Part shown: positions 3,001 to 9,000 of the stretch, in pieces
Position numbering within the stretch: position 1 is the stretch's first letter
Layout of the letters: each line of letters opens with the position of its first letter
DNA from: Chthoniobacteraceae bacterium
GTDB taxonomy: Bacteria; Verrucomicrobiota; Verrucomicrobiia; Chthoniobacterales; Chthoniobacteraceae
Direction: 5' to 3'
DNA: 11,866 nt
NCBI GenBank assembly: GCA_031409335.1
Contig: JANNWY010000234.1
Location: 1-11,866 of the forward strand
Program-made: the position numbers

Positions 3001-6000
3001 GATCACGGCCTCGACAAGTCGCTCGACATCACCACGCTGCTCGACCACTGCAAACCGGCGATCGAGCGCGGCGAAAAAGTCACGGGCCGCTTCGACATCA
3101 TCAACGTCAACCGCGTCGTCGGCACGATCCTCGGCAACGAGATCACAAAACGCCACTGGCACGGTCTGCCCGATGACACGGTGCGTCTGCACTTCGATGG
3201 CAGCGCGGGGCAGAGTTTCGGCGCGTTCATTCCCAAAGGCGTGACGCTCGAACTCGAAGGCGACGCGAACGACTACGTCGGCAAAGGCATGAGCGGCGGC
3301 AAGATCATCGTCTATCCGCCCGCCGGCTCCACGTTTGCCGCCGAGGAAAACATCATCGCCGGCAACGTCGCACTCTACGGTGCGACGGGCGGCGAGCTGT
3401 ATCTGCGCGGCATGGCGGGCGAGCGTTTCGCGGTGCGCAACTCGGGCGTGAATGCGGTTGTCGAAGGCGTCGGCGACCACGGCTGCGAATACATGACTGG
3501 CGGCAAAGTCGTCATCCTCGGCGCCACCGGCCGCAATTTCGCCGCAGGCATGAGCGGCGGCACTGCCTACATCCTCGACGAAACCGGGGACGCCGCGGCG
3601 CGCATCAACACACAAATGGTCGCGCTGGAAAAAGTGGAAGACCCCGACGAAATCGAAGCCATCCACGCCCTGGTGAAAAACCACGCGGATTACACAAAAA
3701 GCCAGAAGGCCTTCAAGGTCCTCGCGCTTTGGGAAGAGATGGTGCCGAAATTCGTGAAGGTGATGCCGAAGGATTACAAACGCGTCCTGCAAGCATTAAA
3801 GAAAGCCGAGCAAGACGGCCTCAGCGGCGACGACGCCCTGAACGCCGCCTTCGAAGCCAACGCCCGCGACGTGGCGCGGATCGGGGGAAGTTAGAAATAG
3901 CCTTTCAGACGCGCGCTTAGCGAATAACCTCAACTCATGCTCACCGAATATACTGACGCCGCGATGAGGGAAGCTCATTACGAATTGATGGAAGACGCTC
4001 GTTTCTTTGGTGACATCCCATCGTGCGATGGATGCTGGGCTGACGGTTCCACGCTGGAAGAATGCCGCGAGAATTTGCGCAATGCACTTGATGCCTGGGT
4101 TATCATCGGTCTCCGGCTTGGGCATGAACTGCCGGTCATTGCGGGCGTGGATCTGAACTACACTGCCGCGTCTCCGTCGCCAGAGTATGCCGAAACCAAT
4201 TAGTCGCCGTGAATTGATTCGACGTTTGCGTGCAATGGGCTGGGAAGGTCCGCGCTCGGCAGGTCCGCACATGGTCATGTTGAAAGAAGGTCGTCGGATC
4301 AGTGTTCCGAATCCTCACGGAGGAGATATTGACTGGACACTTACAAAACGGATTCTGAAAAAGGCGCGTATCGACCCCGCCGCCTGGGATAGTCTGGGCT
4401 CTTAGTCATCGAACTCTTTCTTTGAGTTACTCATGCTGTCACCGCATCGACCACCTTCAAAAAATCTTAAATCCAAGTAGCAAACCGAAATGGGAAAACC
4501 AACAGGCTTCATCGACTATCTCCGCGAAATCCCCGCCGACCGCGCTCCGCTCGAACGCACGCGCGACTGGGGGGAATTTCACCTTCACATGCCGGAGGAA
4601 AAACTCCGCACGCAGGGCGCGCGCTGCATGGATTGCGGCATCCCGTTTTGCCACACGGGCACGCTCATCAGCGGGATGGCGAGCGGGTGTCCGGTGAATA
4701 ATCTGATCCCGGAGTGGAACGATCTCGTCTATCGCGGGCTGTGGAAAGAGGCGCTGGAGCGGCTGCATAAGACGAACAATTTTCCCGAGTTCACCGGGCG
4801 CATCTGCCCCGCGCCGTGCGAAGGCTCGTGCGTGCTCGGCATCAATGAACCGCCGGTCACGATCAAAAACATCGAGGTTTCGATCATCGACAAAGGCTGG
4901 GATGAAGGCTGGGTCACCGCGCAACCGCCGCAGGTGCGCACGGGTAAAAAGATCGCCGTGATCGGGTCCGGTCCCGCCGGGCTGTGCGCGGCGGCGCAAT
5001 TGAATCGCGCGGGACACATCGTCACGGTTTTCGAGCGCGCGGATCGTCCGGGCGGGCTGCTGATGTATGGCATCCCGAACATGAAGCTGGATAAGAACGA
5101 GGTCGTCATGCGCCGCATCCGGCTGATGGAAGCGGAAGGCATCACCTTTCGCTGCAACACCGAGGTCGGGAAAGATATCACTGCCGAACAGCTCCGTGAG
5201 GATTTCGACGCCACGATCATCGCCACCGGCGCGACAAAACCGCGCGATCTTCCCATCGAAGGCCGCGAGCTGAAGGGCATCCATTTCGCGATGGATTTCC
5301 TCACCGCGAACACGCGCTCTGTCCTCGATCAGCACAAGAACGGCAACTTCATCACGGCGGAGGGCAAGGATGTCGTCATCATCGGCGGCGGCGACACCGG
5401 CACCGACTGCGTGGGAACATCCATGCGCCACGTCTGCCGCAGTCTCGTGCAGGTCGAAATCCTCCCCAAACCGCCACTCGATCGCGCGAAAGACAACCCG
5501 TGGCCCGAGTGGCCGAAGGTTTACAAACTCGACTACGGCCAGGAGGAAGCCGCCGCGAGATTTGGCGACGACCCGCGCGTTTACACGACGACTGCGACGA
5601 AGTTCGAGGGCGACGAAAGCGGCCACGTCAAAGCCATCCACACCGTGCAGGTGGAATGGGCGCGCAACGACAAAGGCCAGTTCATTCCAAAAAACCTCCC
5701 CGGCACCGAAAAGGTGCTGCCCGCGCAGCTCGTCCTGCTCGCGATGGGTTTCCTCGGACCGGAGCAGCCGTTGCTCGACTCACTCGGCGTCGAGCGCGAC
5801 GCGCGCAGCAACGTGAAAGCGGATTTTGAAAAGTACCACACCAGCATCCCCAGCGTCTTCGCCGCCGGGGACTGCCGCCGCGGTCAAAGCCTCGTCGTCT
5901 GGGCCTTCAACGAAGGCCGCGGTGCCGCGCGCGAGTGCGACCGCTGGCTCATGGGCCACACGGATTTGCCGTAAGTTTTCGGCGCGGTTAGCGTCCGGGC

Positions 6001-9000
6001 ACTTTTGAACTCGTCGCTCGCGACCGCGTGGCAGCGGCCGCGGGCGTCGGCGCGGGTGCGGGCCTGGCCTTTGCGGAAGTTTTCACCGCAGTCGCCCGCC
6101 GCGTCGTGGGAACTTTCGGCTCTGGCACGAGCGATGGCAGATCGAGGTACTTGTCGAAATCTTTTTGCGTGTAGGTCTTGTTCACCAGTTCCGTCCGCCC
6201 GATTTCCGCGGCGGTCACGCTTTCGATTTCCGCGCGCCCGTTCACGATCGTCGGCGTGAGGAAAATCATCAGCTCGCTTTTCACGTCGCTTTTCACGGTG
6301 CGGCGAAAGGGCATCCCGATCACGCCGGGGATGTCGCCGAGCAGCGGGATTTTCCGCACCGATTCGATCTTCTGCGTCTGCATCAGTCCGCCGATCACGA
6401 CCGTCTTTCCATTCGGCGTCACCACCACGGTTTCCGCGGAACGCTTCGCGATCACGGGCGCGCTGGCATTGCTGGAAATCGGCACGCTTTGATCCGTGAG
6501 CGACGAAATCTCCGGCGCGACGATCATCTCGACCATGCCTTCCGAAGTGATGAACGGCGTCACGCGCAGGATCACGCCGACGTTGTCGTAGGTGATCGTG
6601 TTGATGATGTTTCCGTTGTTGTCCGTGCGGCTGTTCGTCACGAACGGCACTTCCTGCCCGACCACGATCACGGCTTCCTGATTGTTGCGCGCCATGATCG
6701 AAGGCCGCGAGAGCACCTCCACTTTTCCTTTCGTGGAAAGCGCGCGGATCGTCGCGCTCCAGTCGTCGTTGAGGATGCGGGCGAATGTCCCATCCGTCGG
6801 ATTCGGGATCACGCCGCCGAACAGGCTGCCGCCAGTGACACCATTCGCGAGCACCGCGGCCTGCGCGAGGTCGGTCACGAGGCTGCTGGTTTTCGTCGTC
6901 GTCACGCCATTGGTCGTGCTCGCGCTACTGGTCGCGACCGTGGAATTGCCCGTCTTCGCGCCGGTCGCAGTGCCATTGTTAAAGGTGTAATTCGCCTCGA
7001 CGCCGATGTCGGAGCCCTTGTTGTAGGTCACTTCCACGAAGACGACTTTGATGAGCACCTGCGGCTTCGGCTGGTCGATCGTCTTCACGACTTTCATCAA
7101 TTCCGCATGCGTCTCCTCATCGGTCACGATCATCAGCGAGCGCGTCTCGGGATCGACCTGGATGATCGCGTCGCCGAGTTCCGTGTTGCTGCGATACTGG
7201 CGCGTGCCGGTCGCGGAGGTGCGATTGCCGCCCGCGCTGAGGCCGCCGCCGGTGCCGCGGTTGGTGGCACCAGTGCCGCCGCGAGTGGCGCCGCCTGGCC
7301 GCGCCGTCTGCGCGTGCAGCGGTGCGGTGAGCAGGAGCGCCGCCAAGGGCAGCGCGAGGATTTGGATGAGATTTTTTTTCATGGAAAAAAGTGAGTGCGT
7401 GGCGAGTCGTGGAAAATCTCAACGTCCGCTCCGGCCACCGCCACCGCCACCGCCGCCGTTGTTCGAGAAATCCGAAGTGTCCATCGTCGCGCCCTGCGTG
7501 CTGCGGTCGTTGAGCCGGTTGTTTTGCTGCGTGCTGGAAATCGCCGACTGGTCGCCGAGCACGCCGCGCAGGACGGTCGCGACCGTGTCCGGGTCCGCGT
7601 TTTCCAAACGATACGTGTACACGCGCTGCTTCTTCGCATCGGTCGCGTCGAGCCGCCCGACGGTTTCCGCGATCTGCATCATCGTGTCGCGCGAGGCGGT
7701 GACGACGAGCGAATTGGTGCGCGCATCGCCGACCGCAACCACCTTCGCCTGAAGCAGCGCGCGTTCGCTCGGCTGGCCGGTGCCGCTCGTCGGCTGCTGG
7801 CCGCCGAAGCCGCCAAAAAATCCGCCGAATCCACCGCGTCCACTTTGGCTGCGACCGTTGCGATTCTGCGAACTGTTCGATGTGTCTGGGTAAAGTTTCG
7901 TCAGCGTCTCCGCGAGTTCCGTCGCGTCCGCGTGGAGCAGCCGGAAAATCCGCGTCTCCGTCGTCGCGTCGATGCTCGTGTCCAGCTTCTCGACGACGCC
8001 CGTGATGTCCGGGATCAACTCCGCCGGCGCGCTCACGATCAGCGAATTGCTCTGCGCATCCGCCACCGCCACGATCCGCGACGCCGCCTGCCGCGCCTCG
8101 CTCTGCCCCGTGCCCGAACTACCCCCGGGCGTCCCTCCAAATCCGCCGAACCCCGGAAATCCACCGCCGCTGCTGCTGCCGCCACGATCCCGATTTCTCC
8201 CGCTGCTGCCGCCGCTCGTCGTCACTTGAAAGAGCGAAGTCACGATCGTCGCGAGTTCTTTCGCGTCCGCGAAGCGCAGCGGATAAACCTGAATCGTCGA
8301 GATGCTCGCCACCGACGTGTCGATCGCGCGAATGATCGTCGCGATGCGGCGGATATTCGTCTGCGTGTCGGTGAGCAGGATCGTGTTCGCGCTTTCGTTT
8401 GCGGTGATCGTCGCGTTTTCCGAAAGCAGCGACTGCAAATTCTCGACCAGCTTCGCCGCCTCGCCGTACCGCAGCGGCAGAATTTGCGTCACCATTTCAT
8501 CTTTGCGCGGGATCTGCTCGGGATCGCTGCCCTGATGCACCGGCAGATCGCGCTTCTGCGCATCCTTCCGGTTCACGATTTTCAAAATCCGCCCGTTACG
8601 AATCGCGATGAATCCCTTCTCGATCAGCACCGCATTCAGCAAATCCACCGCTTCCTCCGCGGAGATTTCCTGGCGGCTCGTCACATTCACCGTCCCGCTC
8701 ACCTGCGCCTCCTGTACGATGACAAAGCCCGCCGCTTCGCTCAGATAGTTCAGCACTTCGGTCAGCGGCGTGCCTTGGAAATTGAGGATGATGCCGCCTT
8801 TGCCCGCGGCTTTCGCGGGCGGCGTCGCCTCGGTTTTTGGAAGTGGCGCAGTCGCATCCGGCGCGGGTACCGCGACGGCAGGCGCGACCGGCTTCGGCAG
8901 CGCGACAGGTTCGGATTTCGGCTGCTGCGCGAACGCTGCGCAGGGCAGGAGTAGCAGCGCGGTGAGCAGTGCGATTTGGCGGGGCAGGGGATTCATAGTG

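Follow-up and report, generated by a model that had tools for sequence, protein, structure and literature searches.

A type II secretin encoded by two adjacent genes in Verrucomicrobiota, with the break inside its last N domain

The secretins of characterized type II secretion systems (T2SS), such as GspD, PulD, XcpQ and EpsD (structures 6hcg, 5wln, 5wq7 and 5zdh; family TIGR02517), consist of an N0 domain, a series of KH-like N domains and a secretin core. In the bacterial T2SS structures that we compared, the last N domain lies on one chain. N0 is the GspC-binding domain in known T2SS (PMC8134430), and N3 is described as required for pore assembly and present in all described secretins (PMC8134430, PMC12114550). 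The mitochondrial T2SS secretin is made of several chains, GspD/GspDL and GspDN1-3 (PMC8134430; also the review PMC10128026); two of these share one N domain, with its N-terminal half on GspDN3 and its C-terminal half on GspDN2 (PMC8134430). In another secretion system, the T3SS, the N part and the pore part are encoded by separate genes, namely rhizobial RhcC1 (NolW) and RhcC2 and Pseudomonas syringae HrcIIC1 and HrcIIC2; RhcC1 and RhcC2 are of different origin and not adjacent, and RhcC2 comes from a Tad locus and carries a BON domain (PMC3574062, PMC3459982). Our literature search found no paper on a bacterial T2SS secretin split into two genes, and the parts of PMC4960237, PMC6668835 and bioRxiv 10.1101/2023.11.21.568195 available to us do not mention a split GspD.

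We analyzed an 11,866-nt stretch of DNA (the window; contig JANNWY010000234.1) from a Chthoniobacteraceae bacterium and confirm that it encodes a GspD secretin on two genes, with the break inside the last N domain. Both genes are on the minus strand. The upstream gene, gspD1 (7419-8996), encodes D1 (525 aa) and is followed, after its TGA and a 36-nt spacer (7383-7418) that is pyrimidine-rich before the next ATG, by gspD2 (5988-7382), which encodes D2 (464 aa). Both N-termini resemble Sec signal peptides, with a basic start, a hydrophobic core and an AxA-Q motif; these were called by eye and with a scripted hydropathy rule rather than a trained predictor (D1 residues 1-23 at 8928-8996, by eye; D2 residues 1-24 at 7311-7382, by the hydropathy rule with AxA-Q read by eye). 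The initial annotation had placed the secretin on two genes with separate signal peptides, cut behind the first strand-helix of its last N domain, with halves that correspond to consecutive parts of a known secretin. The ORFs, domain matches and N-termini uphold the two predicted exported chains, the domain table and a comparison of 35 loci uphold the position of the break, and among solved GspDs D1 matches the N-terminal chain (best stretch, for example, 6hcg 28-218) and D2 matches 6hcg 307-604.

The signal peptide of D1 is followed by a Pro-rich linker, N0 (residues 71-140; 8577-8786; PF21305, E = 3e-11), N1, N2, an extra N domain (N2'), a beta1-alpha1 unit (residues 455-481; 7554-7634) and a tail rich in Gly, Ser, Thr and Asn (7422-7553), within which an L-x-x-R motif is invariant. 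A Pfam search finds four Secretin_N stretches (PF03958) in D1 besides the GspD N0, and the D1 model contains N0 and three whole N domains. In D2, a low-complexity head rich in Gly, Thr, Ser and Arg (7173-7310) ends in a conserved motif directly before beta2 and leads into a beta2-beta3-alpha2 unit (residues 71-104; 7071-7172), the secretin barrel (6237-7070; PF00263 at residues 214-380, E = 9e-46) and a C-terminal extension. The Secretin_N match of D2 (residues 70-108) covers only profile positions 31-69 of 69, and the half-domain is modeled as two strands (18-23 and 28-32, model numbering) and a helix (35-48). Thus N0 and the KH-like N domains are on D1, the secretin domain is on D2, and the full set of GspD domains including a whole N3 is spread over two ORFs; neither half (229 and 252 bits) reaches the 351-bit cut-off of TIGR02517. 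The best fold matches of D2 are T2SS GspD structures, and GspD outscores PilQ for both halves. A profile comparison of D1 with D2 gives the expected weak N-domain match (probability 34%).

The genes upstream of gspD1 had initially been annotated as PilM/N/O-like, a reading that is not borne out. They score best as gspL, gspM and gspC and belong to a T2SS operon rather than to a type IVa pilus (PilMNOPQ) cluster, in which separate PilM, PilN, PilO and PilP genes would precede a PilQ secretin. All lie on the minus strand: a gspC-like gene at 9217-9792 (NF041515, E = 2e-9, below cut-off), a gspM-like gene at 9789-10328 (NF040576, E = 5e-9, below cut-off) and a gspL-like gene at 10318-11733 (TIGR01709, E = 9e-6; TIGR01175, E = 1e-4; PF05137). 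The latter carries PilM-like and PilN-like domains on one chain and lies after gspK in relatives. The operon order gspE-F-G-H-I-J-K-L-M-C-D1-D2 is complete in one genome (G034), and E through K are also seen in another (G048); GspG exceeds its cut-off (134 versus 89 bits), and the best matches of the other members fall below theirs. In the source genome, operon orthologues lie on three contigs, C104, C78 and C234, whose ends show no exact overlap, and an unlinked prepilin peptidase is present on C108 (PF06750, E = 8e-33). The same genome has other, one-chain secretins, so the T2SS with the split secretin need not be essential. In Klebsiella- and Vibrio-type GspD, the S domain is bound by a pilotin. 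We recognized no pilotin gene in the operon here, as judged without a pilotin-family search. Some T2SS secretins do not depend on a pilotin (PMC6532946).

We next consider how widely the split is conserved. An orthologue is present in 23 of 60 family genomes, in agreement with the 12 of 31 relatives reported initially. The earlier claim that the split is conserved across the family stands (22 of 22 readable genomes share the break), but its reach is wider: it spans the class and extends to a further class of Verrucomicrobiota. Ten deep-branching split representatives, looked up by cluster, yielded no taxon names, and the range established here is that within Verrucomicrobiota. The break is kept in 27/27 top class-level loci, in 11/12 lower-scoring class orthologue loci, in 11/11 loci from genome contigs (one of which duplicates G009) and in 3/3 matches from the phylum sample, in which at least 3 of 300 gave matches at E <= 1e-45, a lower bound with at most five candidates scored per genome. 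The best 120 D2 homologues are all 395-582 aa long. In one genome (G462), a second copy (L094) has the N part and no barrel gene within the stretch fetched. Fused forms had been noted in distant members of the phylum; this was not borne out for orthologues, and the one-chain secretins fetched from the class are distant paralogues outside the split clade.

To describe the descent of the two halves, we built an N0-N1 tree and a barrel tree (FastTree; 176 and 305 columns, with long-branch warnings; four D2 rows, L036, L037, L039 and L041, were shortened), and in each the 33 split pairs form one clade (99 and 100). The two trees are congruent (patristic r = 0.88; none of 2000 Mantel permutations as high). 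At the level of 50%-identity representatives, a single clade (SH-aLRT 99) holds 36 of the 37 split rows and is free of one-chain rows. Because the split set was gathered by D2 similarity, its grouping as one clade on the D2 side is in part built in, which makes the D1 tree the more independent test. The nearest taxon-named one-chain relatives are from Planctomycetota (31-44% identical over D2 residues 55-400). The D1 tail (median 45, n = 32) and the D2 head (median 45, n = 105) together equal the loop of one-chain proteins (median 87, n = 98) and resemble it in composition. Given that both halves form congruent clades beside Planctomycetota-type one-chain secretins, the two genes descend from the fission of a Gly/Ser loop of about 90 residues, of which the D1 tail is the first half and the D2 head the second.

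A further cut is found at the equivalent loop of N2 in one family (5/5 genomes), so that the secretin there is encoded by three genes, each with its own signal peptide by the hydropathy rule. This N2-cut form with its own signal peptide accounts for 41 of the 120 middle-piece homologues listed, and the three-piece form may have arisen more than once, with 3 changes on the tree, 1 of them forced by strong branches. We also weighed whether Planctomycetota-type secretins include another, independent cut of the last N domain, and set this candidate aside; it concerns a single protein, P0328, of unseen genomic context. P0328 groups with the one-chain P0366 (100/92) and joins other split rows in 0 of 200 bootstrap trees, and a test for a separate cut gives AU p = 0.068 (p = 0.66 with an earlier quick tree).

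Taken together, we propose, with a probability of roughly 80% for the reading as a whole, that D1 and D2 form a working two-chain T2SS secretin that was split once from a one-chain GspD and in which the last N domain is rebuilt. The ancestor would have been a Planctomycetota-type GspD whose last N domain carried a disordered loop separating beta1-alpha1 from beta2-beta3-alpha2. In an ancestor of the verrucomicrobial lineage, this loop would have gained, once, a stop codon together with a new start and signal peptide. A loop near this site is also missing from the PulD cryo-EM model (residues 288-303; bioRxiv 10.1101/397794); it just precedes the strand where the D2 match starts (about 305-307, if the numbering is equal). 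From their signal peptides, we infer that both chains are exported to the periplasm, where the terminal strand and helix of D1 would pack on the two strands and helix of D2. Fragment complementation of this kind is the likely mechanism. The rebuilt domain would couple the D2 barrel to the tower formed by D1 (N0 to N2'), which would bind GspC, in a secretion-competent complex. By analogy with solved GspDs, this would probably be a ring of about 15 with D1 and D2 at 1:1. Both half-cores are retained: conservation is 0.65 in the beta1-alpha1 half, compared with 0.68-0.73 in intact beta1-alpha1 units and 0.40-0.51 in loops, while the beta2-beta3-alpha2 half reaches 0.69. At their core hydrophobic positions, the two halves match intact N domains. 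In single-chain models of either half, the last N domain is incomplete. A complex prediction for D1 345-515 with D2 55-116 scored 0.20 (mark 0.32; controls were not folded) and is given no weight in either direction.

Could the break instead be an error of sequencing or assembly, a pseudogene, or a site where readthrough or frameshifting restores one chain? The two window ORFs are in the same frame with a single TGA between them, as such an explanation would have it, and extra breaks that lack a signal peptide or are frameshifts occur in G003, G028, G020 and G493; we read these as errors or decay, and the one in G003, an in-frame TGA, is the further N-half break already known in one relative. 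However, the frame offsets 0, 1 and 2 occur 11, 16 and 8 times across 35 loci and the stops TAA, TAG and TGA 13, 13 and 9 times, with an ATG and a hydrophobic stretch at each locus, and this variation rules out readthrough, a frameshift to one chain or an assembly error. The junction, including the spacer, is moreover identical, with 0 differences and 0 gaps, in an independently assembled contig (run X2, record 4, 6997-8053) whose source was a different sample of the same study, in line with the initial annotation, which had ruled out an assembly error; D2 passes the signal-peptide rule in 108 of its 120 best homologues; and one-chain forms are absent from the split clade. This explanation is thus largely refuted, and we consider it extremely improbable. 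It is also very unlikely that the halves have different origins through partial replacement, or that an ancestrally split pair was later fused to give the one-chain relatives. The former history is documented for RhcC1/RhcC2 (PMC3459982), and our trees are rooted on only two distant paralogues, but D1 and D2 align to successive segments of the same one-chain proteins, their trees are congruent, one-chain forms surround the split clade, and tail plus head add up to the intact loop.

A more substantial alternative is that D2 is a self-sufficient minimal pore and D1 a loose periplasmic adaptor between GspC and the pore, with the last N domain never rebuilt. Mitochondrial GspD without any N domains oligomerizes and forms pores in vitro (PMC8134430), so the barrel may not need a rebuilt N domain; RhcC1 has been proposed as a linker (PMC3459982); and the conserved D2 motif before beta2 (0.73) could cap the half-domain. 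Against this, hydrophobic residues of the buried type are as well kept in the two half-domains as in intact ones, the D2 model offers no substitute strand-helix and places the motif at a pLDDT under 50, and the cut falls mid-domain twice, whereas an adaptor could stop at a domain boundary. We therefore regard the adaptor explanation as unlikely. Returning to the rebuilt two-chain secretin, a bolder extension, which we offer only tentatively, combines a tower of separately exported modules linked by strand-helix donation with a role of the split as an assembly checkpoint. If so, the final beta1-alpha1 of every chain would complete the half-domain of the next, with two chains here and three in the Limisphaerales-related family. 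Since ring assembly requires the last N domain, D2 would stay pore-less until completed by D1, and with D1 tethered through N0 to GspC, pore formation would be tied to the inner-membrane platform. The split secretin would also be a model in bacteria for the mitochondrial one with its identical cut.

A natural, lineage-wide cut that is repeated in a second N domain suggests that fragments exported separately can probably reconstitute N domains. The split secretin makes ring assembly and tower-barrel coupling testable piecewise and offers a bacterial parallel to the mitochondrial T2SS secretin, which is likewise fragmented and occurs in hosts that lack genetics. There is also a warning for annotation: D1 and the middle piece are often labeled "hypothetical" or "secretin N-terminal domain" and resemble broken genes.

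Canonical GspDs are the best sequence and fold matches of D1 and D2 and share their domain order, and their gene is likewise last in a gspE-F-G-H-I-J-K-L-M-C operon. Unlike them, the secretin described here has two chains, two signal peptides, a cut inside the last N domain and four KH-like N domains instead of three (fewer in some relatives). Membership in the RhcC1/RhcC2 type was rejected: D1 and D2 are adjacent, co-descended halves of one gene that is cut mid-domain, a Pfam search finds no BON domain in D2, and the consecutive mapping, congruent trees and T2SS context differ from that case. The one-chain GspD-like secretins of Planctomycetota (Humisphaera, Phycisphaerae and Sedimentisphaerales) share the long Gly/Ser loop of the last N domain, left intact, and have 2 to 12 N-domain matches per chain (98 measured). 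The closest counterpart of the cut itself is mitochondrial. By our reading by eye of rows in the supplementary table of PMC8134430, GspDN3 is a strand-helix half, and GspDN2 comprises the second half and continues into the first strand of the secretin core, which places their cut in the same loop of the last N domain as that of D1 and D2. We assume that the two cuts are convergent. The mitochondrial secretin is eukaryotic and far more fragmented, lacks N0 and GspC and has its barrel itself cut, whereas in the verrucomicrobial secretin the barrel is whole, joined to its half-domain and encoded in an intact bacterial operon.

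In the window, the secretin is encoded by two minus-strand open reading frames, gspD1 (7419-8996; 525 aa) and gspD2 (5988-7382; 464 aa), which are in frame with each other and are separated by a spacer of 36 nt that follows the TGA stop of gspD1. Family profiles place a GspD N0 domain at 71-140 of D1 together with four Secretin_N stretches, and in D2 they match the secretin domain, preceded by a partial Secretin_N match confined to profile positions 31-69. D1, and then D2, cover successive parts of solved GspDs. D1 closes with one strand and one helix from a fourth N domain and, after them, a low-complexity tail, and D2 runs from a signal peptide through a low-complexity head to two strands and a helix; the signal peptides of both proteins are predictions, called by eye and with a hydropathy rule rather than a trained predictor. 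AlphaFold2 models of the single chains (alignments of 32 rows; mean pLDDT 67) agree with this layout: D1 has N0, three whole N domains, and a lone helix whose preceding strand is unformed, and D2 has a barrel preceded by two strands and one helix. The best fold matches of both models are T2SS secretins, and the GspD model TIGR02517 is the best-scoring model for D1 (229 bits) and D2 (252 bits). Neither half alone reaches the 351-bit cut-off of that model. We conclude that the split secretin is real, conserved, and GspD-like, but departs from GspD in not being a single chain.

The initial annotation held that the break is conserved across the family and is not an assembly error, and both claims stand. 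In the same study, a different sample yielded a contig that crosses the junction and shows no difference there. A D2 ortholog is clear in 23 of 60 family genomes (E <= 4e-79; best matches to other genes, 2e-35), and 22 of the 23 fetched loci have two ORFs that share this break; at the remaining one (G031) the contig ends inside D2. Further breaks occur at three of these 22 loci (G003, G028, and G020), with no new signal peptide there. The split was also found at 11/11 loci in a collection of named genomes (Chthoniobacteraceae, Limisphaerales, subdivision 3, and other Verrucomicrobiota; one locus duplicates G009) and in 3/3 matches from a search of 300 phylum genomes. At the level of the class, the D1 profile matches 75/300 genomes at E <= 1e-40, paralogs included, and the best 27 new loci are all split, with a D2 signal peptide that a script detected in 23 and that was recognized by eye in the remaining four; these loci partly overlap the earlier ones (L060 looks the same as L040) and the counts are not additive. 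Twelve of 20 lower-scoring class stretches are at ortholog level and 11 of them are split, the exception being a second copy in genome G462 with no barrel gene in the stretch fetched; the other eight are weak paralogs (six one-chain, one cut by a contig end, one frameshifted). The best 120 database homologs of D2 all fall within 395-582 aa in length. The hydropathy rule calls a signal peptide in 108 of them; by eye, the rest look truncated or mis-started. At six loci (L036, L037, L039, L041, L043, L044) the D1 ortholog is about one N domain shorter and ends in the same half-domain. Readthrough is excluded as a general explanation because, over 35 loci (G020 omitted for its frameshift), the D1/D2 frame offsets divide 11/16/8, the D1 stop codons are TAA (13), TAG (13), or TGA (9), and all 35 have an ATG with a hydrophobic stretch within -17 to +59 nt.

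The most complete view of the operon comes from the relative G034, where the gene for an exported helical protein is followed, in this order, by gspE, F, G, H, I, J, K, L, M, C, D1, and D2; gspE to gspK were also checked in G048. GspG scores above its curated cut-off and the other assignments are best matches below theirs. The three genes upstream of D1 in the window, which the initial annotation called PilM/N/O-like, score best as GspL, GspM, and GspC and are therefore better read as a T2SS assembly platform. In the window's genome, the remaining operon genes lie on contigs C104 and C78, a prepilin peptidase is encoded elsewhere, and the secretin domain is matched seven times, with several one-chain proteins among the matches. 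An open frame on another contig (C260:9948-11819) joins a secretin-like C-terminal domain to an N-terminal region, which we take to resemble a BlaR1/M56 peptidase. The exported helical protein at the head of the operon (L009:5303-5842; C104:11241-11657 in the window's genome) is conserved and has no Pfam or NCBIfam match; its Atlas neighbors at 0.95-0.96 include clusters named Spy/CpxP-like, and as a lead we regard it as a candidate periplasmic chaperone for this T2SS. Divergent from the operon at about nine family loci are an OmpR-family regulator and a CpxA-like sensor kinase (L009:2829-5165).

Between gspC and gspD1 the window carries a palindromic repeat of about 167 nt (9029-9195) with small hairpins in its two inverted arms. 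Across 66 contigs of the genome, blastn finds it about 130 times, counting either orientation, and it looks like a polymorphic REP/MITE-like insertion because contigs in runs X3 and X5 skip it. A hicB-hicA toxin-antitoxin pair (3937-4405) is inserted between genes that we presume from their translations to be gltB (1-3894) and gltD (4490-5974), and the low-complexity G/C sequence at the contig end (11760-11866) is probably unreliable.

A search among longer proteins found 117 one-chain relatives of D2 (31-44% identity), and the few that bear taxon names are from Planctomycetota. We built trees of the N0-N1 region and of the barrel from 33 split pairs, 37 one-chain proteins (every third of 110 with an N0 match), and two paralogs from the window's genome. 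The split pairs form one clade in both (support 99 and 100), and distances in the two trees are correlated (r = 0.88; 0/2000 permutations as high). Both were made with FastTree and drew long-branch warnings, four D2 rows are truncated, and the set was picked by similarity to D2. For a less biased set, we took the top 150 representatives at 50% identity (classed by script as 44 split-type, 82 one-chain, 24 fragments or unclear), removed those of the split type that begin within the half-domain or are missing most of the barrel, and added seven loci to the 30 left. In this tree, 36/37 split rows fall in one clade (SH-aLRT 99) that sits among one-chain rows and contains none. The only split row outside, P0328 (344 aa; signal peptide, half-domain, and barrel), groups with one-chain Planctomycetota-type secretins and may be an independent second cut at the same loop (AU p = 0.068). 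The one-chain secretins of the class itself lie outside the split clade, beside the paralogs of the window's genome. Nine giant one-chain secretins of 3,400-5,277 aa (P0323, P0333, P0340, P0344, P0365, P0367, P0368, P0370, P0373) have 37-62 N-domain profile matches (overlapping ones counted) ahead of a normal barrel, and most of the nine belong to a single clade related to the split family.

D1 and D2 align to consecutive stretches of one and the same set of one-chain proteins. In these, the loop at the cut site has a median length of 87 (n = 98), close to the sum of the D1 tail (median 45; n = 32) and the mature D2 head (median 45; n = 105), and tail and head share its Gly/Ser/Thr/Asn/Arg composition. 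A PulD cryo-EM model lacks residues 288-303 (bioRxiv 10.1101/397794); if the numbering is equal, this gap directly precedes the strand where the match of D2 to PulD begins. Based on the single clade, the consecutive alignment, the loop lengths, and the PulD gap, the best history is therefore a single fission in a disordered loop.

A second cut is found in a Limisphaerales-related family. Both G471 and G520 also have a break within the N part, located after the strand-helix of N2, and a separate signal peptide opens the middle ORF. All five genomes examined from this family, which belong to one genus, have three ORFs (L086:823-3972, L087, and L098-L102; G471, G520, G571, G572, and G573), with predicted signal peptides on the second and third and with spacers of 43-54 nt in frames 0 or 1 at the new cut. 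The middle-piece form, a signal peptide with the second half of N2, accounts for 41 among 120 listed homologs of the middle piece, classed from their protein sequences and, where named, from Limisphaerales, Verrucomicrobiales, or Verrucomicrobiia. A tree of 40 middle-piece and 15 two-piece rows needs three changes, one forced by strong branches. Given that N2 is cut as well as the last N domain, the lineage has therefore seen the same cut, between strand-helix and strand-strand-helix, become fixed on two or more occasions, in different domains.

The sequences themselves establish the gene structure, its conservation, the shared descent of the halves, and the retained half-domain cores. Beyond this, we propose that Sec carries every chain across the inner membrane and that the terminal strand and helix of the upstream chain would complete the half-domain of the downstream chain. 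Such completion would couple the GspC-binding tower to the barrel, and the two loose tails would occupy the part of the channel that is lined by the uncut loop of one-chain secretins. The last strand-helix of D1 has a mean conservation of 0.65 and the D2 half one of 0.69; in intact N domains the corresponding elements score 0.68-0.75, and loops score 0.40-0.51. The hydrophobic core pattern of both halves is kept position by position. Loss of this pattern would be expected in a vestigial half; that it is retained argues that each half is maintained as part of a domain. In the main rival, the barrel would be sufficient by itself and D1 would serve as a loosely attached adaptor; this draws on the mitochondrial GspD, which forms pores even without N domains (PMC8134430), and set against the retained cores, we consider it unlikely. 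A bolder form of domain completion, in which it gates ring formation, is conceivable though doubtful; it is suggested by reports that N3 is required for pore assembly and that N0 is the GspC partner (PMC8134430).

In our search of open-licence PMC papers and bioRxiv, no bacterial T2SS was described as having its GspD split. There are two precedents for a secretin in pieces. In the rhizobial T3SS pair RhcC1/RhcC2, the halves are of separate origin (PMC3459982 and PMC3574062), in contrast to the single fission favored here. In the mitochondrial T2SS, PMC8134430 and a review (PMC10128026) describe GspDN2 and GspDN3 as an N domain's C-terminal half and its N-terminal half, respectively. Rows of the PMC8134430 supplementary table, read by eye, have GspDN2 continue past the half-domain as far as the first strand of the secretin core, and the mitochondrial cut thus appears, on those rows, to share its loop in the last N domain with ours. 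The D1/D2 split should surprise secretin specialists and is directly testable, and both the three-chain form and the mitochondrial parallel add weight to its interest.
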